DNA of 42,235 nt from positions 1 to 42,235 of IMG/VR virus record IMGVR_UViG_3300020215_000089; one strand, 5' to 3'. Of this stretch, positions 1,939-42,235 are shown one piece after another. A program made the translations under genes and the position numbers. The notes below the pieces were generated by a model. The model was not told the DNA's origin. It worked only from the letters and a program-made list of their open reading frames with translations, and ran no database searches. Position 1 is the first letter of the stretch. The number at the start of each line of letters is the position of its first letter. The DNA is from a virus.

Positions 1939-1966
1939 TTGGTTTTAGATCGGGCGCTTTAGGCCG

Positions 1967-2003
1967 AAAAAAAGCCTCTCACGCGGGGGAATGCGTGAAA
2001 GGC
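1967..2003 (-). terminator. Rho-independent terminator inside the late operon
   Basis: Minus strand has GCCTTTCACGC, a loop, then GCGTGAGAGGC (11 bp, one G-U) followed by TTTTTTT. It lies in the 138-nt gap between two glycosyltransferase genes. Confidence 0.7.
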
Positions 2004-2076
2004 TCCAAACAGCCTAAAGCGGGGCTCGCGGGTTTGGCCGCGATTCGGCGGGGATCAGCCGCCTACCCGATATTTG

Positions 2077-12199: not shown

Positions 12200-12356
12200 C
12201 GGGCGTTCCGTCCTTGTGGGCGTAAATGACCTCGTGCCCGATGTGCTTGGGGCGAATCTCAGACTTGGAGCCAAGGAAGGTCTTGCAGTCGAGGCAGCGG
12301 ATAGCCTCCCAACGTCTAGGCTTCTCGGACGCCTGCTCGTAGACCCATCTAGGCAT
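12192..12356 (-). CDS. Hypothetical small protein
   Basis: 54 aa from the ATG at 12356 (MPRWVYEQ...), overlapping the terL stop by 8 nt. Confidence 0.45.
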   Translation of the reverse strand: MPRWVYEQASEKPRRWEAIRCLDCKTFLGSKSEIRPKHIGHEVIYAHKDGTPDE

Positions 12357-13932
12357 CGGTGTTGACTCCGTAGCCGCTAGACGTGGCGGGAACCCAGGCC
12401 GAGACATCCTCAACCACCGGCCCGCTCATCAAGTCGTAGCGCAGGACGTCGCAGAAGTCCTTGTGATCTTCCATCGGCTTGCCCGTCTTGGGGTCGCGCG
12501 ACCACCGCTCAAGGGCGGCAATCAAGTTCTTGCAGCGCGGGGAAATGCGGATCTTTGGGCGGTTAAGACCGTCTAAGGGCTTAGACTTGTCGTAGGCCAG
12601 GTACTCCTTAACCTTGAGGATTCCCGTCTCAATCTCCTCGGCATTGGTGTAGGAGTTGGAGAACTCAATGCCCTGCTCGGCAAACTCCTGACGGAGGGTA
12701 AGCCCACCAACCGTCCTGCGAACTGCACCGAAATGGCGGTCAAGGATTCGGCTATCAACTCTCCGCCCTTTCTCTCGGGCACGGATCAAGTCAGCGTAGT
12801 CTTTGACCGTTAAATTGCTGTCTTTGGCTCCCTCAAACGGGAAATCGGGCCACTCGTCGTAGTAGTGGACGACTCCGGCCTTGTCGACATACCGCCAGAG
12901 GATGGCCAGGGGCTTGGCAATGGCAGGATCGCACGCCATCCCAATCGAGATAGGCTCATCCGTCGGCGGTTCAAACTCTTCCTTGGCCACATGGACAGAG
13001 CGGTCAAAGGTCTTGAAGATGCGGCCCGACAGGTGCATGAAATTTCCATGCGCCCGGGCCTCAATCTCGTCAGGGTCGTAGCGGGCAATGATGCGCTGGA
13101 TGTCGTCATGCTGGAGCTGGCCATTCTTGCCATGCTCAACACAGTTGTCCTCGATGTCGGCATGGAGACAGACGGCCTTGCCAACCGGCTTGCCATCAAC
13201 CACGATTTCCGGCTTGTCTACGATGTCGTCTTTGACCCAGGCCGAGGACAAAAGCGGGGTCATGTCGAAGATGTTGATACCGCCCATGCGCTGACGGGCC
13301 ACGCAAGCGTTGAAGATGGGCTTGGGCGGCGGCTCGACAAACACATTGATAGCGATGGTCTTACCCTCGAACTCCTTAACCGCCTGCTCGTTGGTCATGA
13401 CCTCACCGAAAAAGCCCGTATCGGTGTAGAGAAAGCGGTTGTATTGCTTGCCGCCCTTGACCCAGGTGTACCGCCCCTTGGGCCACCACTTAGCCGCTTC
13501 CATCTGGATGGGGCCGATGTCGCTGACCAGCTCGGACTCAGTGACGATGCGGATGCGCTTAGGCCAACGCTTGGGATATTCCTGGTACAGCGGATAATCG
13601 AAGGCCGACGACGGAGCGCCCCACATGATCGCCCCGAGGATGGCGAACACGATGGACGTTTTCCCCACTCCGTTGGCGTAGGCCAGCACGGTTATGAAGT
13701 TCTCCAGGTTGCCGATTTCACGGATTGCCCTCTCCTGCGCTCCGTTGGGCACCAGGAACCGCAGCGGCGTCTGAACCCTGGCCAGCTCCACTTCCTTCAC
13801 CCAGGCCAACGCTTGCGATTGTTTCTCCGGCGATAAGCTGCTCCAGGAGTCCCTTAGCTTGATGAGGGTTTGCGTCCAGTCCCTCGAATTGATGGGAGGA
13901 TTCAACGGTCTCTTGGGGCTTACCGATTCCAT
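12349..13932 (-). CDS. terL: Terminase large subunit
   Basis: 527 aa with a Walker-A-like VLAYANGVGKTS. Size and position are typical. The start is uncertain because the first 215 nt overlap the TerS-like ORF. Confidence 0.9.
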   Translation of the reverse strand: MESVSPKRPLNPPINSRDWTQTLIKLRDSWSSLSPEKQSQALAWVKEVELARVQTPLRFLVPNGAQERAIREIGNLENFITVLAYANGVGKTSIVFAILGAIMWGAPSSAFDYPLYQEYPKRWPKRIRIVTESELVSDIGPIQMEAAKWWPKGRYTWVKGGKQYNRFLYTDTGFFGEVMTNEQAVKEFEGKTIAINVFVEPPPKPIFNACVARQRMGGINIFDMTPLLSSAWVKDDIVDKPEIVVDGKPVGKAVCLHADIEDNCVEHGKNGQLQHDDIQRIIARYDPDEIEARAHGNFMHLSGRIFKTFDRSVHVAKEEFEPPTDEPISIGMACDPAIAKPLAILWRYVDKAGVVHYYDEWPDFPFEGAKDSNLTVKDYADLIRAREKGRRVDSRILDRHFGAVRRTVGGLTLRQEFAEQGIEFSNSYTNAEEIETGILKVKEYLAYDKSKPLDGLNRPKIRISPRCKNLIAALERWSRDPKTGKPMEDHKDFCDVLRYDLMSGPVVEDVSAWVPATSSGYGVNTDA

Positions 13933-18042: not shown

Positions 18043-18208
18043 TCTTTTTCTCCTGGGCGGCGGCCAGAGCCAACGAGTCGAACGAAATCGAATACGAAAT
18101 GCCGGCGTTGCTTTCCGACAGCAGCGAGTTATATTCCGCGTGCGCCTCAATCCATGCGCGATAAGCCTTGTGAACCTTCGTCGCGGCGGCCTTCAACCTC
18201 TTATCCAT
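18035..18208 (-). CDS. Hypothetical small protein (57 aa, not in ORF track)
   Basis: Hand translation gives MDKRLKAAATKVHKAYRAWIEAHAEYNSLLSESNAGISYSISFDSLALAAAQEKKNG*. GGAGGAG lies upstream, and both ends overlap the neighbouring genes. Confidence 0.4.
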   Translation of the reverse strand: MDKRLKAAATKVHKAYRAWIEAHAEYNSLLSESNAGISYSISFDSLALAAAQEKKNG

Positions 18209-18479
18209 TTACTCCTCCGTGCGGCTTGTCCCCGAGAGCGGCGAGGGCGGCTTTTAGGACTGGCCCCTGCCGTATGTCACCTATCGCCGCCGCAGCGTCC
18301 GCGACCGCCCGCAGCTTGGCGTTCTCCTCCTCCAGGCGCACAACTAGATTCCGGCCACGCTCCAGCAGGGTCACGGCCTCGCGCAGCTTCGCCGCTTCGG
18401 CCTCGGCCCGATAAGCGCGATATTCGGCCATCTCGCATTGCGCCTTCCAGTCGGGGATAATGTTGTCCATCTTGGGCAT
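18201..18479 (-). CDS. Hypothetical coiled-coil protein
   Basis: 92-aa ORF, Ala/Glu/Arg-rich. Confidence 0.55.
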   Translation of the reverse strand: MPKMDNIIPDWKAQCEMAEYRAYRAEAEAAKLREAVTLLERGRNLVVRLEEENAKLRAVADAAAAIGDIRQGPVLKAALAALGDKPHGGVNG

Positions 18480-18665
18480 TTAGGCGGCCTCCTTCTTCGA
18501 CTTCTCGGCGCGCTTCTGGGCGCGGATAGCGTCACACCATCCCTTTTCGTACGCCATGGCGACAATTCGATTGTCTCGGAGCTTTTTATATCCGACCTTC
18601 ATCGACCACGAAAATCCGCGCGCCCAGGCCGAAATTGAGACGCGCTTTTTGTCCTCGATCTTCAC
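18480..18665 (-). CDS. Hypothetical small basic protein
   Basis: 61-aa ORF. Confidence 0.5.
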   Translation of the reverse strand: MKIEDKKRVSISAWARGFSWSMKVGYKKLRDNRIVAMAYEKGWCDAIRAQKRAEKSKKEAA

Positions 18666-25865: not shown

Positions 25866-26300
25866 TTATTTTTTTGCCGACTCAAAACACCGCATACACC
25901 AGGCGCTTAATGCGCCATTCGGATACTTCACGATCTTCAAATTAGCCGTCCCTTCCCCGCATTTCCGGCAATGCGCCCCGCACGTCGAACAGACCCGGGC
26001 ATTTCCTTGAAGCCTGTACGTCCTGCACAGCGGGCAGAGATTCCCCTCGTCTTTCCCTTTGTCGCCATTAACCCGCTCCCAATACCTGACACAAGCCCGC
26101 CAGTCCTGAACCTTCGTCTTTCCCCTAACCCAGCCGTTGGCCGTGTAGTGGTCAACGAATCTGGCGGCATCAATCCCATTCCTGCGTTCCTCACAGTACG
26201 CCCTAACCTCGTCAACTGACGGCGGTACGAACCGCTTGCTCTGCTGCGGAGTCGGGTAGAACCGACACCCGCAGTCCGGGCACTCTGTCAGTCCGGTCAT
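25866..26300 (-). CDS. Cys-rich protein, possibly replication-associated
   Basis: 144 aa. Zinc-ribbon-like CPDCGC and CSTCGAHCRKC clusters flank PPSVDEVRAYCEERRNGIDAARFVDHYTANGWVRGKTKVQDWRACVRYWE, a motif type seen in phage replication-organiser proteins. Confidence 0.4.
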   Translation of the reverse strand: MTGLTECPDCGCRFYPTPQQSKRFVPPSVDEVRAYCEERRNGIDAARFVDHYTANGWVRGKTKVQDWRACVRYWERVNGDKGKDEGNLCPLCRTYRLQGNARVCSTCGAHCRKCGEGTANLKIVKYPNGALSAWCMRCFESAKK

Positions 26301-31020: not shown

Positions 31021-31443
31021 ATGGGTAAGTGGTTGCTGGGCTCCGTCGCGCTTCTCTCGGCCTGCACCATTCCCGCCATGACCCCTGAAGAAGTCGCCGT
31101 CGCACAAAGAGCAGGGAACGTCTGCACGCGATTTGCGCTTCCCCAAAACTGCTACACATACCTCCCCGTCAAGCAATTCGTCGAGATATATGGCGACAGG
31201 ATGAGCCAGCAGGAGCGCGGAGATTTTTTCATTGCTCAGGTCCTTCACGGAAAAAGAGCCCAGGAGCAAGACCAGCTCAACAGAGAGTGGGGCGCGGCGA
31301 TGCAGCAGTTCAGCAACGACATGCGGGAAATCAACCGCCAGCAACAGCAGTTGTATCAGGTTCCCCCGCCCCCAGCACCATGGCAACAAACCATAACGAA
31401 CTGCCAGAACACTTACGGCGGCTTCAGGTGTACCAGCTACTAA
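31021..31443 (+). CDS. Prophage lipoprotein
   Basis: MGKWLLGSVALLSAC contains the lipobox LSAC. GAGG lies upstream. The mature part is Gln-rich. Confidence 0.7.
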   Translation: MGKWLLGSVALLSACTIPAMTPEEVAVAQRAGNVCTRFALPQNCYTYLPVKQFVEIYGDRMSQQERGDFFIAQVLHGKRAQEQDQLNREWGAAMQQFSNDMREINRQQQQLYQVPPPPAPWQQTITNCQNTYGGFRCTSY

Positions 31444-31693: not shown

Positions 31694-32710
31694 GTGCCAG
31701 GACTCATTAAACGCGGGAAGGTCTGGTACTCGGACATCCGCCTCAACGGGCGGCGGGTCCGCAAGCCCCTAAGCACTGATAAGGTCGTCGCCCAGCAGAA
31801 GCTCCGGGACCTATCCGACGAGCGCCATTCCGTGAAATACGGGGCGGGCGGGGACATGCGCTGGGGGCCGTTCAAAGAGAAATACCTAGCCTTCTGTCTC
31901 GTCGATAAAAAACCATTTACCGTCGTACGCACGAAGGTCTCCCTAGGTCATTACGAAAAGTTCGCCAAGCCAAAGACCCTCTCGGACGTGACCCCGGAAA
32001 CCCTGGAGCAGTTTAAGGGCCACAGAAAGGCGCAGGGGATTGGGAATGCCACGATAAACGTAGACGTGAAGAAGGTAAAAGCCCTCATGCGCCGGGCGAT
32101 GCTCTGGGGTTATATCGACAAGTGGAACGGCGCGGCGGTTAAGGAACTGCGGGAGACGCGCAACCGGGAGAGATTCTACACGGTCGAGGAACTAAAACGA
32201 CTCCTCGACGTTTGCCGGGCCAAGAAATACGGCTTTTACCAGTGGGAGACGGTCTGCCTGCTGGCCGCCCAGGCGGGGCTGCGAAGATCCGAAATCTACC
32301 ACCTTGCCTGGAAGGACATCGACCTGGAGTCCGGGATGCTGCACGTCTCCTCAAAAGAGGGCTGGGACCCCAAGACCGACAAGTCCAGCCGGCACATCCC
32401 GATTGCCAAAGACCTCGCCAAGCATCTCAAGGGCCTGAAGCGATCAACCCCATGGGTCATTGGCGAGCGCCCGTCCAAGTCCGTCATGTCCGCCTACTTC
32501 CAGAAAATCAGCCGCAAGGCCAGGCTAGACGGGAACCTCCACACCCTGCGCCACACCTTCGGAAGCCACCTAGCCCAAGCCGGCGTCCCCCTTCACACCA
32601 TCGCCAAGCTAATGGGGCACTCGACGACGCGCACGACGGAACTCTACGCCCACCTAGCCCCCAAGGACCTCAAGTCCGCAATCAGCAGGCTTCCCGGAAT
32701 CGGCCTTTAA
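31694..32710 (+). CDS. int: Tyrosine integrase
   Basis: 338 aa with a GTG start. The catalytic region is RRSEI...HTLRHTFGSHLAQAGVPLHTIAKLMGHSTTRTTELYAHL. Confidence 0.9.
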   Translation: MPGLIKRGKVWYSDIRLNGRRVRKPLSTDKVVAQQKLRDLSDERHSVKYGAGGDMRWGPFKEKYLAFCLVDKKPFTVVRTKVSLGHYEKFAKPKTLSDVTPETLEQFKGHRKAQGIGNATINVDVKKVKALMRRAMLWGYIDKWNGAAVKELRETRNRERFYTVEELKRLLDVCRAKKYGFYQWETVCLLAAQAGLRRSEIYHLAWKDIDLESGMLHVSSKEGWDPKTDKSSRHIPIAKDLAKHLKGLKRSTPWVIGERPSKSVMSAYFQKISRKARLDGNLHTLRHTFGSHLAQAGVPLHTIAKLMGHSTTRTTELYAHLAPKDLKSAISRLPGIGL

Positions 32711-33925: not shown

Positions 33926-34090
33926 CTAGTCGGCCCATTTCTGGTGATGTTCAAAGGCGGCGCAGGTTTCTGCTGATAGGTCCTCGTCCGTTTTGCCCCG
34001 GATCTTTTCAAGTCGGAAGGACCACCCGCACGAACAAGCGACTGTGATGAGCGCGATTCGCTTGAGCTGGTGCCCATTTACTTGGCCCAT
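33926..34090 (-). CDS. 54-aa micro-ORF (not in track)
   Basis: Hand translation gives MGQVNGHQLKRIALITVACSCGWSFRLEKIRGKTDEDLSAETCAAFEHHQKWAD*. It looks more protein-like than the listed 62-aa ORF 33889..34077. Confidence 0.4.
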   Translation of the reverse strand: MGQVNGHQLKRIALITVACSCGWSFRLEKIRGKTDEDLSAETCAAFEHHQKWAD

Positions 34091-34491
34091 TGGACCGTGA
34101 GCTGTAAATCCTCGCCTTCTAGGTCATCCTCGAACCGCTTAACGGCATCCCGGGAGCCAAGGAGGGCCTTTTGTCCGGCCAGCTCGCCTATGGCATTACC
34201 CAGGAGGACGCAGCCTTCCGAATCAGACTTGAGCCCCTTGTCCACGTCCCCGCAGAAGTTCCCGCTATGAATCTGGATGGCTTTATACCCAGGAACGCCC
34301 AAAAGCCAGTAAACGTCCTTATTTCGCTTAGGCGAGTGGCCTTTCCGGCACAGATAAACCCCTTCGGGTATACACTCGGGCGGCTCGCCCGAATAGCATT
34401 GGAATCCCGAATCAAGGGTAAAGAGACCAAAGGTCCCCTGGTCGGAGGACTCCTTTCGGATTAGGGTTGCCTTTCGTGTTTGTCTAGCCAT
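34078..34491 (-). CDS. DUF5675-like protein (function unknown; in lysis-like block)
   Basis: Trimmed to the ATG at 34491. LIRKESSDQGTFGLFTLD...PEGVYLCRKGHSPKRNKDVYWLLGVPGYKAIQIHSGN...SEGCVLLG resembles DUF5675 (from memory). Confidence 0.5.
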   Translation of the reverse strand: MARQTRKATLIRKESSDQGTFGLFTLDSGFQCYSGEPPECIPEGVYLCRKGHSPKRNKDVYWLLGVPGYKAIQIHSGNFCGDVDKGLKSDSEGCVLLGNAIGELAGQKALLGSRDAVKRFEDDLEGEDLQLTVQWAK

Positions 34492-34577
34492 GCGAAGAGG
34501 GCAAGCAAGCACACGGCGGCAACAAAGCACAGCCCACCGATATAAGACGCCCCAGCCAGGACCCAGCCGCCAATCAT
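34461..34577 (-). CDS. 38-aa transmembrane micro-ORF
   Basis: Hand translation gives MIGGWVLAGASYIGGLCFVAAVCLLALFAWLDKHERQP*. It forms an ATGA overlap with the upstream gene. Confidence 0.35.
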   Translation of the reverse strand: MIGGWVLAGASYIGGLCFVAAVCLLALFAWLDKHERQP

Positions 34578-34849
34578 TTCGGCGCGGGGACGATCTTATC
34601 GAGGGCATCCCGCACCCTAGACGCCTTATCCAGCAAAGTCGGGACGAGGGCCGGGGCAAGGACAGCCCACACCTGAGCCGCCTGCTCGGCGTCGATTACC
34701 CCGGCGTATTTCAAGAGGTAGACCAAGGACATAACTCCCAGGTTTATCTCCGAGCGATGCCCCTTTAGCTTGTCGTTTGCCCAAGCGACTGCGCCGACAA
34801 GCCTTTTTCCCAAGCTGAGCTGAGCAACCTTGACGAGTAGCCAATTCAT
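34574..34849 (-). CDS. Holin-like membrane protein (putative)
   Basis: 91 aa with two hydrophobic segments (INLGVMSLVYLLKYAGVI and VWAVLAPALVPTLL). AGGAGG lies upstream. Confidence 0.4.
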   Translation of the reverse strand: MNWLLVKVAQLSLGKRLVGAVAWANDKLKGHRSEINLGVMSLVYLLKYAGVIDAEQAAQVWAVLAPALVPTLLDKASRVRDALDKIVPAPK

Positions 34850-34916
34850 TGATCCTCCTAGAATCTCCAGCTAAAAGAGATGCGAAATCGGCGCAAGACG
34901 CGAGACAAAAGCCACC

Positions 34917-35123
34917 TCACTTTTGGTCACTCAACAGGGCAATCAACTTACTCGGAGCGTAGACGAGGAGAGCCAACCCTGCCCCAACACCTGCCGCCCA
35001 ATTTTTGATGCGCTCCAGGGCCCGAAGCCGCTGCCCGTGATCGTTTAGGCGCTCGTCCGTCGTCTTTAGCTGTTGCTCGATCCGGGACAGTCCGCTAATA
35101 ACCCTCTCCTGGAAGTCGTCCAT
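34917..35123 (-). CDS. Tail-anchored membrane protein with coiled-coil N-terminus
   Basis: 68 aa with a C-terminal WAAGVGAGLALLVYAPSKLIALL. AGGAG lies upstream. Confidence 0.5.
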   Translation of the reverse strand: MDDFQERVISGLSRIEQQLKTTDERLNDHGQRLRALERIKNWAAGVGAGLALLVYAPSKLIALLSDQK

Positions 35124-35131
35124 ACAGTCTC

Positions 35132-35299
35132 CTATGACCGCTGCATTATGACGATGGCGTCGATTGCGCGGTTAAACGCACGCATGGCATAAAGGGCCTG
35201 GCAAGAGACGTAAATGGACAGCGCCGCCAGACACGCGCACAACAACTCCATGAGCAGGAGAAGGCGCGGCATGAGCTTGTCCGTTTTTCTTCGCCCCAT
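35132..35299 (-). CDS. Small single-TM membrane protein
   Basis: Trimmed to the ATG at 35299, which forms a TAATG junction. The sequence is MGRRKTDKLMPRLLLLMELLCACLAALSIYV... Confidence 0.45.
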   Translation of the reverse strand: MGRRKTDKLMPRLLLLMELLCACLAALSIYVSCQALYAMRAFNRAIDAIVIMQRS

Positions 35300-35631
35300 T
35301 AGTCCCCCACACACGGGTATTTCTGCTCACAGTAGAGCGGGTCGAAAGGACGCTCCAAGTGGCAGATTTCATGCGGCAAACAGCCCATGTACCGCTTGCC
35401 GATAAAGATGGTTGCCTTGCGGCCAAATTGACCGGGTTTGAAACACGCTACCGGCTTGTGTTTAAGGGGCTCGCCCCGGTCATTCTTGGGGCAGATGGCC
35501 GCACAGTGGTTGCCCACGGCGATAGAGTCACAGGCCAGCACGTTGTAGTCGAAGTAACGGAACCGCTGGCAGTTGGCCGACTTCCAGGGCGTTGCACATC
35601 CGGTCAACAGCAGGATGGCTAGGAGTCTCAT
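35299..35631 (-). CDS. Cys-rich lipoprotein with HExxH motif
   Basis: Trimmed to the ATG at 35631, which forms an ATGA overlap. MRLLAILLLTGC contains the lipobox LTGC. The protein has LPHEICHLERP and about 10 Cys. Confidence 0.6.
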   Translation of the reverse strand: MRLLAILLLTGCATPWKSANCQRFRYFDYNVLACDSIAVGNHCAAICPKNDRGEPLKHKPVACFKPGQFGRKATIFIGKRYMGCLPHEICHLERPFDPLYCEQKYPCVGD

Positions 35632-36251
35632 TGAGCCCCAAAACAAGAGATATACACCTGTGTAAAATCGAAAAACGAGACATTCTTTAACGTCGAAAAG
35701 CTCGCCTGATCTACCGCCTTTGCCTCTGAGAGGTGGCAAGACGACGAGTTGTCATCGGTCGTGTATTGCACCGTGCAGAAACAGGCGTAATTCGTGTCTG
35801 CATACGCCTTGGCGAAATTCACGACGTAATTCCCTGTCGACATTCGGCTCGTCGAAGTGACGTTGATGTCGTACACCGACGCACCCGTCCCTCCGGTAAT
35901 GACGGCCAACACAGAGGCAAAGGAGCCCTGGTAGAGGGCATTTGCCGTAGACGTGGCCGGGGCGATACTGTTTACTGTCATCGTGGACGAGTTGACGAGG
36001 TTGAACGTCCCGGAAATGCTCAGGTTTGACGCCGATGAGTTGCCCGTCATCGAGACGTTCGCCGTGAATGTGGACGCAGCCGTCGCCTCGAAGCCTCCCT
36101 GGAATGTCGGTTTGCCCGTCAGCGTTGGCCGCCCGCTTTGCAGTTCACGGATGTCTAGCCCCAGGTTTTTGACCTTCTCGTCAAACGCAGGACTGTAGGT
36201 CCCGGACGATTGGGCGGCGGCAAGGGTCGCCGACAGGAGGAGGAGGGACAT
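35628..36251 (-). CDS. Short tail-fibre-like protein with signal-peptide-like N-terminus
   Basis: MSLLLLSATLAAAQS-SG at the N-terminus, then LTGKPTFQGG and Ser/Thr/Asn-rich repeats. It occupies the fibre slot after the internal-protein genes. Confidence 0.5.
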   Translation of the reverse strand: MSLLLLSATLAAAQSSGTYSPAFDEKVKNLGLDIRELQSGRPTLTGKPTFQGGFEATAASTFTANVSMTGNSSASNLSISGTFNLVNSSTMTVNSIAPATSTANALYQGSFASVLAVITGGTGASVYDINVTSTSRMSTGNYVVNFAKAYADTNYACFCTVQYTTDDNSSSCHLSEAKAVDQASFSTLKNVSFFDFTQVYISCFGAQ

Positions 36252-37621
36252 CAAGGGAGCGCGGGCCTCTCCCTGCGGCTCATATACGCTTGCTCCAGGG
36301 CCGAGGCTGTAGCGGCCTGCGGGGCAACGCGATAGACAGCCCCGGGAACTTTTCCCAAAAGCGCCGCACCCTTTAGCGCCGTACCATAGGCCAACGGGGA
36401 CACCACCGCCGCGCCGCCCAGGCCACCCAGGACAGCGCCAACCGCAGCACCCGGAACACCACCAATAGCCCCGCCCGTTGCAGCGCCGGACGTAACCCCG
36501 GAAGTAAGCGCCCCCCAGAATCTGGCTACGTTGGGCTGGCCGTTGATGTTGCGCGGCAACGCGGAGCCAAAGTCGCCGGCAACCTCATTTTCCCAGGCCG
36601 CCCGCCTTGCCGCCCGCCACTCGGGATATCCCGGGGGCTGGATCTGCGGATTTTGGTAGGGAATCTTCTGACCCGCGATATAGGTAAACTTCGTTTGAGG
36701 ACCGACCGGCGGCCCGCCCTTTTCAATGAAATCGTCAAACTGCGTCTTGAGGCCTTGCGCCTGCTCGGATACTTGCTGCGCCATCTCGACGCCACGCGAG
36801 CGCATGTCCCGGATGATTCTTCCCGCTTGGCTGGCATTTACGGCCTCTTGGATTGATAGCGTGCCGTCGCGCAGTTTGTTGTAAGCGTCTCGCATCGTGT
36901 CCATGGCCCTGGAAACCGTGTCGAAGGGGTCATCGGACTTGGCGATGAACTCCCTCCGCGAAGTGGTCCCAGAGGCCGAGTGGAAAGAATCGTAAGCCTT
37001 GGACACCGCATCGTCGGACGGAGCGCGAAGCAACAGACTCGGATCAGCGGCCACCGCTGCGCCGGACTTCTCATCGACGTTGGCAAAGAGCTTGAAAATT
37101 GCCCCACCGGCCTTATTCAGGGCCGGGCGGACGGCTCGCACGCCAGCGCCGATGGCCTGCCCCGCACCCTCACCCGCCGCGTTTTCCAATCCCGCCCGGT
37201 TGACCTGTCCCAAGACCTCACCCGCAGGCGTGAACTCCCGCCCTGTGGCGGCATTATTGGCCTGAACGAGGGCTTGCCGGGCCGATTCCATGCCCGTCGC
37301 GCCAATGTAAGCCCCGCCAAGTCCAGCCAGGGCCACTCCGGGCAGGCCAAACGGAGCCCCATACGGAGCCGCCGCCGCAGCCCCCGCCATTGCACCCGCC
37401 GCCGCAGGCGTGGCCCGCGCCAAAGTCCCCAGGAGTCCGGTCGGACGGTTGCTTAGAATGTCGGAATCGGAGCCAACGGACTGGCGCAAGACGTTCCCGG
37501 CCCCAGCCACGGATGCCTCAATAAACGATGGCTCCTCTTTCGTCTGGGCGAGTGAGTAGCCAGGCGGCAAATCACGGGTTTGCGGAGCCTCGGAATATCC
37601 CGGAGGAAGTTCGCGCTTCAT
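36251..37621 (-). CDS. Internal virion / ejection-like protein (Gly/Ala-rich, glycine-zipper segments)
   Basis: Trimmed to the ATG at 37621, which forms an ATGA overlap. Assigned by composition and by position after the nozzle-like gene. Confidence 0.45.
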   Translation of the reverse strand: MKRELPPGYSEAPQTRDLPPGYSLAQTKEEPSFIEASVAGAGNVLRQSVGSDSDILSNRPTGLLGTLARATPAAAGAMAGAAAAAPYGAPFGLPGVALAGLGGAYIGATGMESARQALVQANNAATGREFTPAGEVLGQVNRAGLENAAGEGAGQAIGAGVRAVRPALNKAGGAIFKLFANVDEKSGAAVAADPSLLLRAPSDDAVSKAYDSFHSASGTTSRREFIAKSDDPFDTVSRAMDTMRDAYNKLRDGTLSIQEAVNASQAGRIIRDMRSRGVEMAQQVSEQAQGLKTQFDDFIEKGGPPVGPQTKFTYIAGQKIPYQNPQIQPPGYPEWRAARRAAWENEVAGDFGSALPRNINGQPNVARFWGALTSGVTSGAATGGAIGGVPGAAVGAVLGGLGGAAVVSPLAYGTALKGAALLGKVPGAVYRVAPQAATASALEQAYMSRRERPALP

Positions 37622-38661
37622 TGTTTCCACCCCACGAACTTGGGACCGTTGTAAAGGGCAACGCGAGTGCGCCCGGAACCGTCAACAAGCGGCACCTCTT
37701 CCACGCCGCCGCCGCCCAAAGAGGCCAGCTCGGCGTCAGGGATTCCAAGATCGGGGAAAACAACATCAGGGTTGATTCCCGGATACTGAGCCGCACGACG
37801 AGAAAGGGCCGAACGCTCCGACTCAACGCCCTTCTTTTGCTCGTCGTAGATGGCTTTAGCCGTATCGAGAATTACCTTGTTTTTTTCGTTGGCGCTGACG
37901 CGGCCCTGCTTAGCGTTGTTCCAGGCCGTGGCCAACCGCTGAGCCAGGGGAGTTGCCTGGTTGCTCAGCGCAATTTCCCCCTCGCGAACGACGGAGTTTG
38001 GATCAAGAATCTTGACCAGCGCGTACACCGTCGCGATGTCGCTGATACCGCTGGGATTCTTCGCCAAAGCGGCGATGTTGCGGTAAGCGTCACGGATCTG
38101 GGTGAAGTTCTTGACCGGCTGAGCGTTGCGGTAATCGTCGTAAAGCTGGGACTCAATCCGTGCCCGCTCTGTCAGCTCAAGCCCACCCGCACCCCGGGCT
38201 TTGTCCGCCTCGGCCTTCGTCTTGTCTATCTGGGCGCGGGTTAGCTCCTGGGACAAATCCTGCTTGCCGAACATCTTCACAAGGCTCTGCTTGAACTGGT
38301 CAGCGGCGGATAAGGTTTGCGGGCTATACGGTCCAACCGGAGGATTGGGGCTTGTGGCCAAACTAAGGACGGTCGGGTCGGTCTCAGCAATCGTCTTGCC
38401 GCCGAGGGCGAACCGCTCTTGAAGATCGGCAAGCCCGGCCGCGCGCTTTTGATTGGCCAGGGCACCTTGAGCGGACTGGACCTGGAGGTTGTGTAGCTCT
38501 CCCGCCCGTGCATCCTGGACGCCCTGCCGCTCAAGCTGTTTCTGCTGGAGGTAGGCGTTATAGATAGAGTCGATGGTGTTTCCAACATCCCGGAATTGGA
38601 ACGTCGGATCACCAGGGGCCTGGAACTGCGGATTAGACTGCGCCGGTGTAAACCATTTCAT
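37618..38661 (-). CDS. Internal virion-like protein
   Basis: 347-aa Gln/Ala-rich ORF with ATGA overlaps at both ends. Confidence 0.45.
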   Translation of the reverse strand: MKWFTPAQSNPQFQAPGDPTFQFRDVGNTIDSIYNAYLQQKQLERQGVQDARAGELHNLQVQSAQGALANQKRAAGLADLQERFALGGKTIAETDPTVLSLATSPNPPVGPYSPQTLSAADQFKQSLVKMFGKQDLSQELTRAQIDKTKAEADKARGAGGLELTERARIESQLYDDYRNAQPVKNFTQIRDAYRNIAALAKNPSGISDIATVYALVKILDPNSVVREGEIALSNQATPLAQRLATAWNNAKQGRVSANEKNKVILDTAKAIYDEQKKGVESERSALSRRAAQYPGINPDVVFPDLGIPDAELASLGGGGVEEVPLVDGSGRTRVALYNGPKFVGWKQ

Positions 38662-39344
38662 GGTCGAAAGAGCCCTCCCGCGTTGTAGCCCACGTCTCCG
38701 CCAAGCTGAGCGCCAAGCCGCGCGCCCGCCAGACCCATCCCAGTAGGCGCAAGGGCCGCGCCAAGGCCCGCTCCGAGACCAATGCCAGCGATGCTGCCAA
38801 GAGCCCCGGCCCGCTGATTCCTACGCTGCTGGTTCAGGTAGTTCTGGTACATGTCGTTCATGTAGTTGCGGTCTTCGATCTGATACTTGCGCTGTCGCGT
38901 CTCATCTCGAAGCCCATAGGCCCGCTCCAGGGCTCCCTGGCCCTGCGCGGCGTAGCTGTTCTGAAGGTGGCTCAGGTTCTTGCCGTAGAAGTCAGCCAGG
39001 AGGGCTTGGCGGTTCTGGGCGAGCTGAGCCCCGGCAGAGGCAACCTGGGCCGATTGGGCCGACGTGACCGGCCGTCCAAGGGAGGCGAATTGGGAGTTAG
39101 AGGCCGCCGCCGCACGGCCCAGAATGTCCTGGTCGGAGGCGGCCAAGCGAGCCCCAAGCCGGTCGGTGTTCTGCTCCATTAGCTTGCTCTGGAACTCGGG
39201 GAGCTGCTGGGCGATTAGGCTGGCCTCATACTCACCAATCCCGCCTTCATCGAGAAACTTGCCGATATAGGCCAACTCCTGCGGGGTAGGTGTACGCCCA
39301 AGCGTCTGCTTCCACAAATTCGCGACTGCGTTTAAATCAGCCAT
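38658..39344 (-). CDS. Internal virion-like protein with C-terminal glycine-zipper
   Basis: 228 aa with GGAGGA upstream and a C-terminal GALGSIAGIGLGAGLGAALAPTGMGLAGARLGAQLGG. Confidence 0.45.
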   Translation of the reverse strand: MADLNAVANLWKQTLGRTPTPQELAYIGKFLDEGGIGEYEASLIAQQLPEFQSKLMEQNTDRLGARLAASDQDILGRAAAASNSQFASLGRPVTSAQSAQVASAGAQLAQNRQALLADFYGKNLSHLQNSYAAQGQGALERAYGLRDETRQRKYQIEDRNYMNDMYQNYLNQQRRNQRAGALGSIAGIGLGAGLGAALAPTGMGLAGARLGAQLGGDVGYNAGGLFRP

Positions 39345-39353
39345 GATTCCTCC

Positions 39354-42164
39354 TCACGGTCCTGTTACGTTCCAAGGCCACGACAGCCAGGTAATCCCGA
39401 GCCCCAACACCTCAAACGGGGTTGTCGAGTTGTTCCCGACTCTGAGCGACATAAAGTTTTGAGGCGACGTCTTTGGCAGATTGAAATTGCTCCGGGCGTA
39501 TGTGATGCCAGAGCCAGTAGACAGCGACACGGTGTAATCGCCCATCTCGCCGTTGGAGAATGTGTAGGTAGCGGTCAAACTCCCGGCCCCGTTATTGCGG
39601 CTGAGGAGAGAGACGTTTTTAAATTCTTTCTCAACGAATGGATTAGCCGAGCCGACATCCTTGCTCTGCCAGTAGGCGTTGATGGGCCGGCCGTCGTCTG
39701 AATCCACAAGGCCGTAGAGATTCCACGTCCCCGAAGACGCCGCCCCGAAATAGAGACTGTTATTGATGAGACGGGGAGCCTGGGCTTGGATCGAGAACGG
39801 GAACCACGCGCCCAAGCGACGGTCGAACTTGAGGAGGCGATTGGAGTAAGGCGCTCCATTAATCGTCGTCGTCCAGTAGATGGAGTCTTTAATCGAGTCG
39901 TAGACAGCCCAGGACGGCTGAGCGGGCGTGCCTTCATTCCAGGCGAGCGTGCAGGCGTCTACTTGGGCCTGGTCGGTGGCTGAGCCAAGGAGCGAGCGCC
40001 AGCCGATGTAAACGGCCGTATTGGTGGCAATCGTCACCGTCGCGTTGTTGGTAAGGCTCGTCTGCCACGTCAATGGAGCCGTCGCCGGGAGTGTTTCGCA
40101 CGTCGCGGCTGACGTGGCGTAGTAGACAATTGACCCGCTTCCCGCCGTCGTGTCGGCGCACGAGAGCGTCCCCCAAGACGAAATCGAGCTGTTGGGCTGG
40201 ATGCACCGAGTAACGAACTGACCCGTCGTGACGAAAACTAGGGAGGTGGTAGAAACCGACGGCGATTCAATGAGGCTGGTAAACGTGTACGTCGCTCGAT
40301 ATTGCGCGTAGCGGTTAGCCGTTACCGACCCAACGGCAATTCCCCCGTTGGCAATCGACTGGTAATAGCTCCACATATCGTCATTCGGAGACGACGAGAA
40401 GCGCACAGAGAAAGACATCGTGGCTCCAGCCTGGAGGCTTACAGCGGACGTGAACTGACCGTAGATTGACGCTGGGACCCCGGACTCTAAAACCCTGGAC
40501 GTAAATGTGGAAACGCTCCCAATGTCGGCTCGGCCAGTTGCGGCTACGCCGACTGCCGGATAAAGGAAGTCAAAGGAAGCAACCCCAGAGGTGTCCCCCG
40601 CCTCTGTGGCCCCACCCATGAAGGCGTAAGCCGTAGCCGAGTAGGCATTGGTCGCCGTGACAGACGCCTTAAAGACACCGTCCCTGTAGAAATACGTCGC
40701 CGGATGGGACGTGACGATGATTGTGAACGTCGAAAATGCCGTCTGGTCGCGGGCCTCGGAGAAAATCTGCACGCCATCCGAGAAATACTGGGTCGCGTTG
40801 TTTCGAATGATGACGTATGGGGCATTCCCCAGGACCCCAGTGCTGTCGGCCGCCGCCCCGACCATCGTGTACCCGTCGTTGTTGGCAGAGTGCCGCGCAT
40901 TGAAAACGAGAGACTTAGACTGGCTCGTGCTTCCCAAGGCGCGGACAACGCGGTAAGTGTCGTTGATCGAGATAAACGACTGCGTGTAAATCCCGTTGGT
41001 AACGGCCTGATTCGGGGCAGTACCGCCAACCGTCCCAACCGTCCAGCCATCGGAAAGCGGGAGAGTGTTCCCCTCAAAGCGGAACGTGTAGCTGCTGGTC
41101 ACGCCTGAAAACACAAAGGCGGGAGAAAGGTCAGACACCGTCGTGCTAGCGGGGAACATAGAACCCGGGATCGTGTTGAGGTTCCAGGTTCCAGTCGGGA
41201 ACTGCACGCCCGCCTGCCAATCGGCCTGGGTCGTTTGTGTGTTCGAGTTTTCCCCACCGCCCAACCCTCCTGACTGGCTCTTAACAAGGTTGGGGATCTT
41301 GGCTGAGATTTGGCGCAGCGCCCCGCCGCACAGCTCCCAATAGTTCTTGTCCTGGGCGCGGAAGTAGAGGCAGTTTCCGGCCGTCGTGATTGACCCCGGG
41401 TCGGTCGTGCCGATGTTGGGCGACAGGATCGAGCATCGCGTGGTGTACTGGTTGCCCAGCTCGCACGCAGAAATCGAAGCCGTCTTAAAGACGTAGAGGA
41501 TGCCGTCTAGGTGTTTGAGGCCGCGGACTTTGTCTCCCGGAGCCCCGAAGTCGTCAAAGTAGGAGTCCTCTGGGTTTACTCCAAGCGTAAAAGCCGTGTA
41601 GTTGCCGGCCGAGGACAAATGGACCCTGTTGGGCTGGCCTGAGATGTCCCCCACGGCCAGACGGTCGCCGGTTAGCTCAAGGATAGACCCCTGCGGCATT
41701 CCCGGAGGACTGGTCCGGGTCGTGCCGTCATAGGCCATGATCGGGTCGTATTTGTTATTGGCCCCGTAGAGGACTCCCCCAACGTCCACAAAGGACCATC
41801 GAGTTATTCCGGCCGCCGCCGTGGTCAGGAACGTCGAAAAGGCGTTTCCGTTGGTCGACTTGGCGCAATTGCGATCCTGGCAGACGATGTCTAACCGGTT
41901 ACCAGATGAGTCGATAAACGAATGGGAGCCCGTGACCGGCGATGTGGAAACGGTCAGGTCGGCGGTCTTGGAGAAGCCCTTGCGCTTGAGGATGGCCGAG
42001 CCCTCAAGGTTAGACTCGACGTTTAGAGCGTCTTGGGCGTCACAGTTGTTGAGCGTGGCCGGCGTGTCGGCGTCGTTTAAGCCGTGGAAGCAGGCGGACT
42101 GGTAGGCACCCTCCTGCGCCTGGGCCGAGCCGAGGAAAACCGCGAGGAGGAGGCTTAGGACCAA
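39354..42164 (-). CDS. Large tail protein, nozzle / tail tubular protein B analogue, with signal-peptide-like N-terminus
   Basis: 936 aa. The TTG start overlaps the stop of the adaptor-like gene across the junction. The N-terminus reads (M)VLSLLLAVFLGSAQA-QEG. The sequence looks beta-rich and is Cys-rich. Function is assigned by size and synteny. Confidence 0.5.
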   Translation of the reverse strand: MVLSLLLAVFLGSAQAQEGAYQSACFHGLNDADTPATLNNCDAQDALNVESNLEGSAILKRKGFSKTADLTVSTSPVTGSHSFIDSSGNRLDIVCQDRNCAKSTNGNAFSTFLTTAAAGITRWSFVDVGGVLYGANNKYDPIMAYDGTTRTSPPGMPQGSILELTGDRLAVGDISGQPNRVHLSSAGNYTAFTLGVNPEDSYFDDFGAPGDKVRGLKHLDGILYVFKTASISACELGNQYTTRCSILSPNIGTTDPGSITTAGNCLYFRAQDKNYWELCGGALRQISAKIPNLVKSQSGGLGGGENSNTQTTQADWQAGVQFPTGTWNLNTIPGSMFPASTTVSDLSPAFVFSGVTSSYTFRFEGNTLPLSDGWTVGTVGGTAPNQAVTNGIYTQSFISINDTYRVVRALGSTSQSKSLVFNARHSANNDGYTMVGAAADSTGVLGNAPYVIIRNNATQYFSDGVQIFSEARDQTAFSTFTIIVTSHPATYFYRDGVFKASVTATNAYSATAYAFMGGATEAGDTSGVASFDFLYPAVGVAATGRADIGSVSTFTSRVLESGVPASIYGQFTSAVSLQAGATMSFSVRFSSSPNDDMWSYYQSIANGGIAVGSVTANRYAQYRATYTFTSLIESPSVSTTSLVFVTTGQFVTRCIQPNSSISSWGTLSCADTTAGSGSIVYYATSAATCETLPATAPLTWQTSLTNNATVTIATNTAVYIGWRSLLGSATDQAQVDACTLAWNEGTPAQPSWAVYDSIKDSIYWTTTINGAPYSNRLLKFDRRLGAWFPFSIQAQAPRLINNSLYFGAASSGTWNLYGLVDSDDGRPINAYWQSKDVGSANPFVEKEFKNVSLLSRNNGAGSLTATYTFSNGEMGDYTVSLSTGSGITYARSNFNLPKTSPQNFMSLRVGNNSTTPFEVLGLGITWLSWPWNVTGP

Positions 42165-42235
42165 AGTCGCGTCCCCCGGATCGTGAATCCAGCCGAAGCC
42201 GTGTTCTTAAACGTGTCGATCGCACGATTCTTCCC
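42109..42235. repeat. Second copy of the terminal overlap (= 1-127)
   Basis: Identical by direct reading. Confidence 0.95.

Follow-up and report, generated by a model that had tools for sequence, protein, structure and literature searches.

Organization of the late region

The window, meaning the whole 42,235-nucleotide stretch of IMG/VR record IMGVR_UViG_3300020215_000089 that was analysed, is the circular, approximately 42.1-kb genome of a temperate podovirus, an uncultured phage. All features located below lie on the minus strand. The major capsid gene (7585-8673), whose product lacks a signal peptide, has unpaired cysteines and serves as our internal control, is followed by two fibre-like paralogues, A (211 aa, 6864-7499) and B (428 aa, 5581-6867), then by a cluster of glycosyltransferase and methyltransferase genes (697-5626) and by an SU10-type head-to-tail adaptor (47-700; Pfam PF24175 match, 1.5e-14), which has no signal peptide. 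The cluster, which thus sits in the late operon with the fibre-like paralogues on one side and the adaptor on the other, matches the Pfam families GT1/4, GT2 (two clear domains and one weak) and Methyltransf_11, and is kept in the relatives L002, L032, L033, and L034. Across the circular junction, the adaptor stop overlaps the TTG start of the nozzle (tail hub) gene (936 aa, 39354-42164). Three ejection-protein-like genes come next (228, 347, and 459 aa; 36251-39344), within the interval named in the sequence-only reading; their products contain hydrophobic segments rich in Gly and Ala, no cysteine and no signal peptide, and their homologues in the same four relatives are likewise free of cysteine. 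The ATG of a short tail fibre gene (207 aa, 35628-36251) overlaps the TGA of the 459-aa gene, and the fibre stop in turn overlaps (ATGA) the start of a small lipoprotein gene (110 aa, 35299-35631). Beyond it lies a putative lysis region (34078-35314) encoding 60-aa and 68-aa membrane proteins, a 91-aa holin-like protein, and a DUF5675 protein.

Identity of the 936-aa protein

The AlphaFold2 model of the 936-aa protein (mean pLDDT 80.7) was searched against the PDB with Foldseek, and the top matches were all podovirus nozzle or tail-hub chains, the best being Pa223 (9nwi_Y, 3e-17), with further matches to LME-1, Pan3, A4, P22 gp10, Sf6 gp8, SU10, and T7 gp12; the best matches span 3e-17 to 1e-7 with probability 1.0. 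Matches in BFVD include proteins called 'P22 Gp10, DNA-stabilising'. No sequence similarity to the solved structures was detectable. The nozzles of P22 (gp10), Sf6 (gp8), T7 (gp12), and SU10 (gp17) share with it a common fold, a β-propeller core with extra domains, and the same gene position directly after the adaptor (for the SU10 architecture, see PMC9509320), the gene directly upstream here being the SU10-type adaptor. The 936-aa product is a genuine nozzle, the only one that the genome encodes, and a non-virion role for it was ruled out on these grounds. The sequence-only reading had assigned the signal-bearing late proteins to the virion by position; fold and adaptor adjacency uphold this for the nozzle, while the lipobox protein belongs to a small-lipoprotein family of its own.

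The nozzle start codon and signal peptide

The TTG start of the nozzle gene is, judged from the sequence, the correct one. A GGGGGA motif lies 7 nt upstream, and no conserved internal start was found in the nozzle genes of related genomes. The sequence-only reading had reported no other in-frame start within about 140 codons; the TTG is indeed the only early start, but the next in-frame ATG, GTG, or TTG is codon 126. Translation from the TTG gives the signal-peptide-like N-terminus that had been described, LVLSLLLAVFLGSAQA (42117-42164), with predicted cleavage before Q17 and QEG following. We recovered 77 homologues of the nozzle, and an n-h-c signal peptide is present in 69 of them as scored by a rule set written for this purpose; a few small ORFs that are spurious also pass it. 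The eight without the segment seem to be gene calls that were cut short or given the wrong start; in P0008, from L003, an upstream TTG brings back LAIGLILAALLSLPASA followed by QE.

The cleavage consensus is A-x-A then Q, with Ala at −3 in 53/70, Ala at −1 in 64/70, and Gln at +1 in 51/70 (73%), although the homologues share descent and such counts, like the cysteine parities given below, overstate the number of independent events. The peptides are diverse (66 distinct sequences among the 68 homologues scored), rich in Leu (30%) and Ala (27%), and have a median length of 17 aa with a median apolar stretch of 14 aa, which is too short for a membrane anchor. They are kept over loci of 31% to 59% G+C. 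Mature residues 1-8 of the homologues are poor in K/R (9 against 32.6 expected) and rich in D/E (68 against 40.7 expected), from which an N-in/C-out topology is predicted. The peptides are short, and in half of them the n-region lacks both K and R. In distant signal-peptide-bearing clades (L011-L023) the +1 residue is mostly Asp or Glu, as opposed to Gln in the close clade. In the AlphaFold2 model, residues 1-20 have a pLDDT of 58-67, with residues 2-11 helical, and confidence exceeds 90 from residue 21. In its sequence, the nozzle N-terminal peptide shows all the hallmarks of a signal peptide that is cleaved.

The short fibre and the fibre-like paralogues

The short fibre matches phrog_11355 ('tail fiber protein') at 4.5e-5. 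Its approximately 55 N-terminal mature residues are conserved in L002 (a protein of 1055 aa), L003, L032, and L034, and the C-terminal parts diverge. The signal-like start previously described is borne out from the ATG, with the signal peptide MSLLLLSATLAAA at 36213-36251, but the cleavage site proposed then, after AQS and before a serine, gives way to one after AAA, which the homologues suggest is more likely, before Q14 and leaving QSS. The homologous contexts are SLANA then QE (L032 and L034), SLSWG then QS (L003), SLAHG then QT (L002), and FSFA then QD (L033).

Paralogue A starts with MKKLLALAALIMIGGQALA (7443-7499) followed by ITT, with GGAGG 5 nt upstream of its ATG; its mature N-terminus is conserved, and its C-terminus carries a Cys4 module. 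All of its homologues located directly downstream of the capsid gene (L002, L003, L005, L007, L008, and L033) have signal-peptide starts. Paralogue B has the same N- and C-terminal modules and a signal peptide at 6823-6867, counted from a GTG at 6867 that overlaps the stop of paralogue A (GTGA). The signal-like starts noted earlier for both proteins, each running into isoleucine, hold, except that B had been read from a TTG at 6873 (MPVKT...), and the GTG is at least as likely; whichever start is used, the signal peptide of B ends TLALLLLPSLALG, then ITT. The family has six further members (P0079-P0084), each with a signal peptide, an even number of mature cysteines, and an invariant C-terminal CLN...KCT...GNCTCP module. 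All the homologues that we recovered of the fibre and the paralogues have a signal peptide. The comparison of homologous N-termini proposed with the sequence-only reading returns the hydrophobic segment throughout these families as well as in the 69 nozzles.

The lipobox protein

The signal-like start of the protein after the fibre gene (35299-35631) is likewise as described: it begins MRLLAILLLTGC, with the lipobox LLTGC. We found 40 cluster representatives of its family; H87, E88, and H91 (HExxH) never vary among them, and they conserve the lipobox. The AlphaFold2 model reaches a pLDDT of 93, and no significant PDB fold match was found for it. This protein is an exported HExxH lipoprotein of the lysis/accessory region and not a virion part, and it does fit the earlier suggestion of proteins that are exported and are not virion components. 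A second lipoprotein gene adjoins the integrase gene.

Paired cysteines

All of these proteins had been called cysteine-rich, a description that suits only the lipoprotein (11 Cys in 110 aa); at 12 Cys among its 936 residues (1.3%), the nozzle is not above the terminase or the glycosyltransferases, and what is unusual is the pairing and co-variation. Both cysteines of the nozzle pair (25,41) occur in 34 sequences, neither in 14, and one alone in 1; the corresponding counts are 6, 43, and 0 for (72,75), 21, 28, and 0 for (218,223), and 45, 4, and 0 for (234,244), and the pairs (95,100), (654,669), and (689,738) are near-invariant. The number of mature cysteines ranges from 6 to 18 and is even in 61/68 nozzle homologues, and it is even in 7/7 fibre-like proteins, all sequences of shared descent. 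In the control, 13 capsid protein homologues from the same phages have 2 to 5 sporadic, unpaired cysteines of mixed parity, in columns that swap with A, L, V, or I. We infer from these alignments that the co-varying pairs of the nozzle are probably a signature of disulfide bonds.

Partition of signal peptides among virion proteins

In five related genomes, signal peptides are found on the post-capsid proteins, the nozzle, and the fibre, and are absent from the capsid, the adaptor, and the three ejection proteins, the last again without cysteine. The portal protein has no signal peptide either. The proteins built into or packaged with the head (capsid, portal, adaptor, and ejection proteins) are thus without signal peptides and paired cysteines. 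A rule-set scan of the window's replication and early genes found no convincing signal peptide.

Comparison with known systems

Relative to the P22, Sf6, T7, and SU10 nozzles, the window's family differs in its 6-18 paired cysteines and in a conserved signal peptide of the cleavable type; none of the characterised nozzles is known to have a signal peptide. The only cultured-phage relatives found by sequence are 'virion structural proteins' of the Bacillus megaterium podophages Page, Palmer, Pony, Pookie, and Pascal, whose host is Gram-positive. These have 22-29% identity to the nozzle over its N- and C-terminal parts and share an N-terminal F-x-G-L-N ... D-L-L-N-V motif, but they are about 594 aa long, begin with a hydrophilic stretch in place of a signal peptide, and contain 2-4 unpaired cysteines.

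Virion proteins with Sec signal peptides are found in filamentous phages, where signal peptidase I cleaves pIII and pVIII and their assembly takes place outside the cytoplasm, as would hold for the route proposed below; those phages, however, are non-tailed, are extruded through the envelope without lysis, and have no terminase-packaged cytoplasmic capsid. Lom and Bor of lambda, Llp of T5, and Cor are well-known 'morons', exported proteins or lipoproteins encoded beside tail genes, and offer the best analogy for the lipobox protein and the integrase-adjacent lipoprotein, not for the nozzle or fibre, although the window's lipoprotein differs in being a family of its own with an invariant HExxH. 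Other late phage proteins that use Sec are Sec-exported or SAR endolysins, spanins, and the T4 antiholin RI, which is reported to have a cleavable signal peptide (PMC8385771); these are lysis regulators or enzymes and not virion parts. SAR domains stay uncleaved and are rich in Gly, Ala, and Ser, which sets them apart from the Leu-rich A-x-A peptides of the nozzle family. In Porphyromonas gingivalis phages, proteins likewise predicted to have signal peptidase I sites exposing an N-terminal Gln are products of genes of unknown function (Matrishin et al. 2023, PMC10367356), whereas here the proteins with the feature have been identified as nozzle and tail fibre.

Of the window's genes, 47% have a Shine-Dalgarno motif in front of them, which is atypical for classical Bacteroidia. 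The 'Q-rule', by which Gln is the +1 residue of signal peptidase I substrates, applies to 71 ± 10% of substrates in Bacteroidetes and 77% in Ignavibacterium, and +1 Gln is usually below 20% in Spirochaetes and Chlamydiae (PMC5837995). The 73% of the nozzle family matches this rule, though given the 47% figure its tie to the phylum Bacteroidetes is uncertain.

Export followed by late joining, and its alternatives

The sequence-only reading had pointed out that export-type N-termini conflict with the cytoplasmic assembly of tailed phages, and with the Sec- or lipoprotein-like signals borne out, that conflict holds. It had offered three ways out: uncleaved anchors or assembly handles, exported proteins that are not virion components, and wrong start codons. 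The evidence favours a fourth, absent from that list, namely real export and then late joining to heads. We tentatively hold, at somewhat short of even confidence, that cleavable Sec (signal peptidase I) signal peptides are carried by the nozzle and the tail fibre, and probably by both paralogues. The host Sec system would export the tail proteins late in infection, and signal peptidase I would cut them, in the close clade exposing an N-terminal glutamine that could cyclise to pyroglutamate; they would then fold with disulfide bonds in the periplasm. Adaptor-capped, DNA-filled heads would wait in the cytoplasm, to be joined by nozzle and fibres only once holin lesions or lysis merge the compartments. 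The export signals and paired cysteines suggest that tail parts may mature outside the cytoplasm, the site of head building. Periplasmic maturation of tail parts has not been described for tailed phages, and the features pointing to it here extend to nozzles and fibres of about 100 relatives; a literature search for tailed-phage heads joining periplasmic tail parts found no description. The P22 gp10 nozzle helps to hold packaged DNA in the head, so heads waiting without a nozzle of this type would need other means of holding it.

Of the readings that compete with this, an artefact of mis-called starts or chance hydrophobic stretches is very improbable. The TTG start of the nozzle and the eight homologues lacking the segment might be cited for it, but those eight appear truncated or mis-started, the peptide is conserved over the 77 homologues and their range of base composition, ribosome-binding sites and start/stop overlaps back the called starts, and the nozzle offers no other in-frame start before codon 126. 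Wrong starts were therefore rejected, and for the nozzle and the fibre the comparative data refute them. Uncleaved N-termini, serving as inner-membrane tethers, assembly handles, or peptides inserted into a membrane at infection, are also distinctly improbable. Some podovirus tails have membrane-inserting hydrophobic elements, such as the loop of the phi29 tail knob, and the helix modelled at residues 2-11 and the n-regions devoid of K/R would suit such a role. An anchor, however, has no need of a conserved A-x-A motif and a +1 Gln, the 14-aa apolar stretch cannot span a bilayer, and the flanking charges, with an acidic early mature region, predict translocation of the mature part and not its retention in the cytoplasm. 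Moreover, the +1 residue depends on clade as if tuned to the host peptidase, and fibre N-termini dock on the tail, where a membrane-piercing role is hard to explain.

Dual use, which we consider unlikely, would have working signal peptides export part of the pool to act on the envelope, by blocking receptors against superinfection or keeping progeny off debris, with the virion copies staying cytoplasmic where Sec is saturated or shut down late in infection. It keeps assembly in the cytoplasm, accounts for selection for a real signal peptide, and has precedents in the envelope morons next to tail genes and in the Q-rule proteins of P. gingivalis phages, proposed to be host-envelope modifiers (PMC10367356). 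Against it, there is no alternative start for an isoform without the signal peptide, cysteine pairs that co-vary along the full 900 aa of the nozzle imply an oxidised functional form, receptor blocking is not an obvious role for a nozzle, and the signal is on every distal tail protein and not on the receptor-binding one alone. The suggestion of exported non-virion proteins, right for the lipobox protein and rejected for the nozzle and the fibre, in the case of the nozzle by its identity, is possible, if on the unlikely side, for the two post-capsid paralogues and similar small proteins in relatives, which with the glycosyltransferases might form an exported, possibly glycosylated surface or periplasmic module. 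The capsid-to-adaptor cassette varies in gene number and content among relatives, including an HExxH lipoprotein in L032 and, in L033, a Wzy_C membrane protein that among NCBIfam models matches the O-linking oligosaccharyltransferase TfpM best (1.2e-6, below the curated cutoff). The paralogues are nevertheless built like fibres, with a conserved short N-terminal module (…NPASNVTADS..TP.TIPLRD.NG.F), a variable middle, and a shared C-terminal knob; one family member has typical tail-fibre repeats, and the genes are part of the late operon, coupled by start/stop overlaps. A non-virion role for the paralogues would be compatible with export and late joining, which would still cover the nozzle and the fibre.

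Genome layout and the late operon

An exact 127-bp direct repeat forms both ends of the window (1-127 and 42109-42235), so the genome is circular (or terminally redundant), with a length of about 42,108 bp. Nearly all genes lie on the minus strand, no tRNA genes were found in the window, and the presence of an integrase gene (31694-32710) indicates a temperate phage. On the minus strand, the large terminase (12349-13932), portal (9987-12017) and scaffold (8695-9684) genes were labelled from sequence reading and synteny, and PF23899 (SU10_portal) was found at the portal position in one related locus. The late operon continues on the same strand with the major capsid protein (7585-8673), the fibre-like paralogues A (6864-7499) and B (5581-6867), a methyltransferase with four glycosyltransferase-like genes (697-5626) and an SU10-type adaptor (47-700; Pfam PF24175, 1.5e-14). 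Across the circular junction, the adaptor gene is directly upstream of the gene for a 936-aa protein (39354-42164, minus strand), which is followed, still on the minus strand, by three proteins of 228, 347 and 459 aa (36251-39344), a 207-aa tail fibre (35628-36251; phrog_11355, "tail fiber protein") and a lipobox protein (35299-35631). The lipobox gene heads a region of small membrane proteins, a holin-like protein and a DUF5675 protein.

Homing-endonuclease-like genes of the HNH or Endonuclease_7 type occur at differing sites in the structural modules of related contigs (L032 12865-13524; L033 1591-2013; L001 1745-2302 and 2837-3268; L002 19930-20292), in L032 immediately 3' of the nozzle gene, and none was found at the corresponding structural-module positions of the window.

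Identification of the nozzle

For the 936-aa protein, an AlphaFold2 model built from 49 homologues averages a pLDDT of 80.7, with values above 90 over residues 21-300 and 750-930. The top Foldseek matches of this model in the PDB are exclusively nozzle or tail-hub chains of short-tailed phages, with Pa223 first (3e-17) and further matches to LME-1, Pan3, A4, Carin-1, P22 gp10, Sf6 gp8, PhiM1, SU10 and T7 gp12. Matching predicted viral structures in BFVD include ones named "P22 Gp10, DNA-stabilising". No sequence-level match to solved structures was found. As modelled, the protein has a nozzle fold with a β-propeller core, and we identify it as the nozzle of the phage from this predicted structure and from the position of its gene immediately after the adaptor in the late operon. 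Since no other gene of the genome is a candidate nozzle, the 936-aa protein must be incorporated into virions.

Searches for cultured relatives of the clade bearing signal peptides returned no match when three nozzle variants were compared by tblastn to 50,697 phage records, and weak matches to unannotated gut-phage contigs only when the capsid protein was used. The adaptor as a single query in IMG/VR gave no match. The only cultured relatives found were the Bacillus megaterium podophages Page, Palmer, Pony, Pookie and Pascal, whose "virion structural protein" is homologous to the nozzle family of the window and shares its F-x-G-L-N motif. In these phages, however, the protein has a hydrophilic N-terminus just before the motif, and 2-4 unpaired cysteines. 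The signal peptide described below is thus an addition within one branch of the nozzle family.

Gene starts

The N-termini of the nozzle, the fibre, paralogues A and B and the lipobox protein, read again at their positions, are identical to those of an earlier sequence-only reading, which had drawn attention to their signal-peptide-like character. The nozzle TTG is embedded in the final codons of the adaptor gene and is preceded at 7 nt by GGGGGA, and the adaptor stop overlaps the nozzle start in the related contigs L002 and L032-L034 as well as in the window. The start codon of the fibre, an ATG, shares bases with the TGA of the gene before it, the lipobox-protein ATG overlaps the fibre stop (ATGA), and paralogue A has GGAGG 5 nt 5' of its ATG. 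For paralogue B, the most likely start is a GTG overlapping the stop of paralogue A. That reading had also remarked on the scarcity of alternative starts in the nozzle gene, which we find as well: the next in-frame start-type codon is codon 126, and starting there would remove the best-conserved and best-modelled part of the protein. No conserved internal start was found in the nozzle genes of relatives, and an isoform made without the signal peptide from an internal start is excluded. Wrong starts, which had been put forward as one explanation for these N-termini, are likewise excluded, as are hydrophobic stretches arising by chance.

Signal peptides on the nozzle, fibre and paralogues

Among 5.8 billion proteins searched, 77 nozzle homologues were found, whose signal peptides were scored by a rule-based script. 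The comparison of homologous N-termini that had been proposed shows a signal peptide of the same kind in 69 of the 77, and the other eight look like truncated or mis-started gene calls; for one of them (P0008), an upstream TTG on its contig (L003) restores LAIGLILAALLSLPASA, with QE after the predicted cut. An n-h-c tripartite layout, with the hydrophobic core at the extreme N-terminus, is present in the nozzle family, the fibre and both paralogues. The nozzle signal peptides have a median length of 17 aa and consist of 30% Leu and 27% Ala, and since 66 distinct sequences occur among the 68 homologues scored, it is composition and not sequence that is kept.

At the predicted nozzle cleavage site, position −3 is Ala in 53 of 70 sequences (Val in 8, Ser in 4) and position −1 is Ala in 64 of 70, while Pro is never the first mature residue (+1). 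The site lies 7-10 residues ahead of the conserved mature F-x-G-L-N motif. The apolar stretch is 8-20 residues long, with a median of 14, which suits the core of a signal peptide and is too short for a stable membrane anchor. Over the first eight mature residues, K/R number 9 versus 32.6 expected and D/E 68 versus 40.7 expected, a charge pattern that points to a segment that must cross a membrane rather than one retained in the cytoplasm. Of 68 homologues, 34 have an n-region without net charge and 33 one with a net charge of +1 or more; the n-regions of the nozzle and fibre of the window have no K or R, and that of paralogue A has KK. Residues 1-20 of the AlphaFold2 nozzle model are of low confidence and lie outside the fold.

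Other types of targeting signal were considered and rejected. In none of the listed N-termini is the hydrophobic core preceded by an RR motif in Tat register (S/T-R-R-x-F-L-K was sought). A SAR domain is ruled out by the Leu and Ala content and the conserved A-x-A, as opposed to the weakly hydrophobic, Gly/Ala/Ser-rich and uncleaved segments of that kind. The nozzle, fibre and paralogues have no lipobox, which rejects a lipoprotein signal, and no NCBIfam match to a C-terminal sorting domain, which rejects type IX secretion cargo. More generally, the curated NCBIfam families gave no match for the nozzle, fibre, paralogues or lipoproteins.

Five related genomes were read to determine which proteins carry the signal (the window, L002, L032, L033 and L034). 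All five have signal peptides on the nozzle, the tail fibre and one to three post-capsid proteins, and in all five the capsid, the adaptor and the three post-nozzle proteins have none. The post-nozzle proteins contain hydrophobic stretches rich in Gly and Ala and, in all five genomes, lack cysteine altogether, next to a nozzle with 12-16 cysteines; they fit ejection proteins, which travel in the head and must unfold to pass the tail. For the 207-aa fibre, a word-indexed search for homologues returned only the fibre itself, and its relatives were therefore read from neighbouring loci. About 55 mature N-terminal residues are kept across these relatives, joined to C-terminal parts of 200 to about 1100 aa; a conserved docking end with a varied C-terminal part is the usual design of a tail fibre. 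The paralogue family has a common C-terminal module (...GGALCLN...KCTSA.DASGNCTCP) and variable middles, with a signal peptide in all members. Signal peptides are also present on the nozzle, the next gene and 1000-aa fibres at distant loci of 31% to 54% G+C, which makes the trait an old one that spans hosts of very different G+C.

Cysteine pairing

All of these proteins had been described as cysteine-rich, which overstates the case: at 1.3% Cys, the nozzle does not exceed the terminase or the glycosyltransferases, and the lipoprotein alone is rich in cysteine. An early-region protein of 144 aa (25866-26300, minus strand), probably a zinc-finger protein (CPDCGC...), has 13 cysteines, so a high count alone is no sign of export in this genome.

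The pairing of the nozzle cysteines is what is unusual. In the alignment of 49 nozzle sequences (window numbering), Cys 25 and Cys 41 are both present in 34 sequences and both absent from 14, with only one of the two in a single sequence. No sequence has only one member of the pairs 72/75 (both in 6, neither in 43), 218/223 (both in 21, neither in 28) or 234/244 (both in 45, neither in 4). The pairs 95/100, 654/669 and 689/738 occur in 48 of 49 sequences and are jointly absent from the single outlier. The mature nozzle has an even number of cysteines in 61 of 68 homologues (range 6 to 18), as do the mature parts of 7 of 7 fibre-like proteins. As a control, in the capsid protein of the same phages, cysteines exchange with Ala, Leu, Val and Ile, and their number varies between 2 and 5, odd and even counts both occurring. 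The sequences are related by descent, and these counts are not independent trials. Nevertheless, the nozzle cysteines seem to behave as disulfide partners, the repeated gain and loss of whole pairs being otherwise hard to explain.

The residue after the cleavage site and the host

Gln occupies the +1 position in 73% of the close nozzle clade (51/70) and in all six fibres read (the window and five related). Under the so-called Q-rule of Bacteroidetes, cleavage by signal peptidase I leaves Gln at the N-terminus of 71 ± 10% of its substrates, and a periplasmic glutaminyl cyclase turns this Gln into pyroglutamate; the corresponding +1 Gln share is 77% in Ignavibacterium and typically below 20% in Spirochaetes and Chlamydiae (PMC5837995). 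The predicted +1 Gln of the close clade matches this rule. In the distant nozzle clades with signal peptides (L011-L023), +1 is mostly Asp or Glu. A +1 residue that differs between clades is what is expected if the cleavage site is really used, and points to genuine processing by a host enzyme. It could also mark the host lineage of uncultured phages, separating hosts that follow the Q-rule from others.

We assign no host phylum despite the match to the Q-rule. Of the called genes of the window, 47% are preceded at 5-16 nt by GGAG, GAGG or AGGA, versus 10% at random positions, and such strong use of Shine-Dalgarno sequences, atypical of classical Bacteroidia, does not fit that group. No host prophage was found in 185,579 species genomes in two scans with nozzle and capsid profiles, and a metagenome scan with the integrase retrieved solely a 3.9-kb fragment of the same phage. 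In the lysis region of L034, a 157-aa protein (18147-18620) begins with a membrane segment and ends in ...GAYRF, which resembles an outer-membrane β-barrel signal. This protein, perhaps a spanin-like one of the single-component type, would hint at a host with an outer membrane.

A possible assembly route and its alternatives

Judged from their sequences, these peptides appear to have the full anatomy of cleaved Sec signals, with right starts, and the mature parts a disulfide-type cysteine pattern; the head-internal proteins have neither. Evidence of this kind for export signals and disulfide-type cysteines on the essential distal tail proteins extends over more than 100 related genomes and contigs. 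In the route we propose, the head, portal, adaptor and ejection proteins would assemble and package DNA in the cytoplasm, and the nozzle and fibres would be exported via Sec late in infection. Signal peptidase I would trim the exported tail proteins, leaving those of the close clade with an N-terminal Gln, possibly as pyroglutamate, and in the periplasm the nozzle and fibres would be oxidised (disulfide-bonded) and perhaps glycosylated. They would join the DNA-filled, adaptor-capped heads only once cytoplasm and periplasm had become one space through holin lesions or lysis. By a rough estimate, such late joining is feasible, as about 100 heads and several hundred nozzle subunits in about 1 fL amount to 0.1-1 µM, which allows proteins to associate within seconds. 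The main difficulty is that the nozzle homologue of P22 helps retain packaged DNA, so heads waiting for a nozzle would need the portal or adaptor to keep the genome in place.

The narrower claim, that real virion proteins carry functional export signals, we consider likely. The full chain of Sec export, cleavage, periplasmic oxidation and late joining to heads is held more tentatively, at slightly less than an even chance. That virions are built in two compartments throughout a clade of short-tailed phages, the halves joining only after the inner membrane is breached at lysis, is more doubtful again.

A rival explanation is a split pool, in which part of the nozzle and fibre protein is exported to act on the envelope and part stays in the cytoplasm for virions. 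Classical assembly would be kept, but a split pool provides no means of making the form that lacks a signal peptide, and it leaves the disulfide-type pairs along the entire nozzle unexplained. That the segments are uncleaved anchors or assembly handles, as the sequence-only reading had offered, is disfavoured by the A-x-A|Q motif, by how short the core is, by the charges that flank it and by a +1 residue that differs between clades. The post-capsid paralogues could instead lie outside the virion: they could form an exported, possibly glycosylated module with the neighbouring glycosyltransferases, a view favoured by the Wzy_C protein encoded there in L033, with its weak similarity to an O-linking oligosaccharyltransferase.

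Signal peptides are familiar on phage lysis proteins (Sec-exported and SAR endolysins, spanins), on envelope "morons" (Lom, Bor, Llp, Cor) and on filamentous-phage coat proteins. To our knowledge, textbook models always have tailed phages assemble in the cytoplasm. T4 RI is described as a phage lysis protein with a signal peptide (PMC8385771), and in Porphyromonas gingivalis phages, proteins of unknown function obey the Q-rule, for which host-surface modification was proposed (PMC10367356). We found no report of signal peptides on nozzles or tail fibres, or of tail maturation outside the cytoplasm, in a literature search of incomplete coverage, and so this is a lack of evidence and not evidence of absence. 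The nozzle and fibres are known kinds of protein, new in bearing export signals, and the biology implied would be new for tailed phages. If the proposed route is true, this would be the first known tailed phage to send its host-recognition apparatus via the secretory pathway, comparable to the glycoproteins of enveloped eukaryotic viruses. Should experiments agree, virion assembly by a route in which the head matures in one compartment and the tail in another would be new, and would explain disulfide bonds, and possibly glycans, on an exposed phage tail; how packaged DNA is held before the nozzle arrives would become a question, and pipelines taking a signal peptide as evidence against a virion protein would mislabel such genes.

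Lipoproteins and glycosylation genes

The lipobox protein (MRLLAILL-LTGC), which had been listed with the predicted virion proteins, we read instead as an exported accessory or lysis-region lipoprotein outside the virion, of a sort ordinary for a phage. Its family comprises about 40 cluster representatives of 100-150 aa, with the lipobox kept throughout, conserved cysteines and an invariant HExxH. In 31 sequences H87, E88 and H91 are invariant, and they fall within helix 79-93 of a model with a pLDDT of 93. No significant PDB match was found for the fold; the best matches, weak at E 0.6-0.9, are two HExxH peptidases, tricorn factor F3 and Ste24p. The protein is probably a small zinc peptidase. 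In L032, a HERAH lipoprotein (3882-4190) is located among the post-capsid signal-peptide genes and not after the fibre.

A second lipoprotein of the window (31021-31443, plus strand) begins MGKWLLGSVALLSAC..., with the lipobox ...LLSAC. Together with an 82-aa membrane protein, it adjoins the integrase on the strand opposite the late genes, and the two look like an envelope module expressed in lysogeny, perhaps for superinfection exclusion.

Between the capsid and adaptor genes, a conserved cluster combines a methyltransferase with glycosyltransferase-like genes (GT2, GT1/4), three to five in number (697-5626 on the minus strand of the window; L002 6040-9361; L032 4187-8827; L033 3743-9360; L034 3325-9351). 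The cluster, which lies within the late structural operon, suggests glycosylation of virion or exported proteins. N-linked glycosylation was rejected, as N-x-S/T sequons in the signal-peptide proteins are no commoner than composition predicts, and so was O-glycosylation of the Bacteroidetes type, as D-[ST]-[AILMTV] is not enriched (289 observed versus 330 expected in the nozzle family). In L033, a Wzy_C membrane protein (PF04932; 2516-3749) is encoded between a fibre-like gene with a signal peptide and the glycosyltransferases, and among NCBIfam families it comes closest to TfpM, an O-linking oligosaccharyltransferase, with a match (1.2e-6) that falls far short of the curated cutoff. Phage-encoded periplasmic glycan transfer would fit exported substrates.
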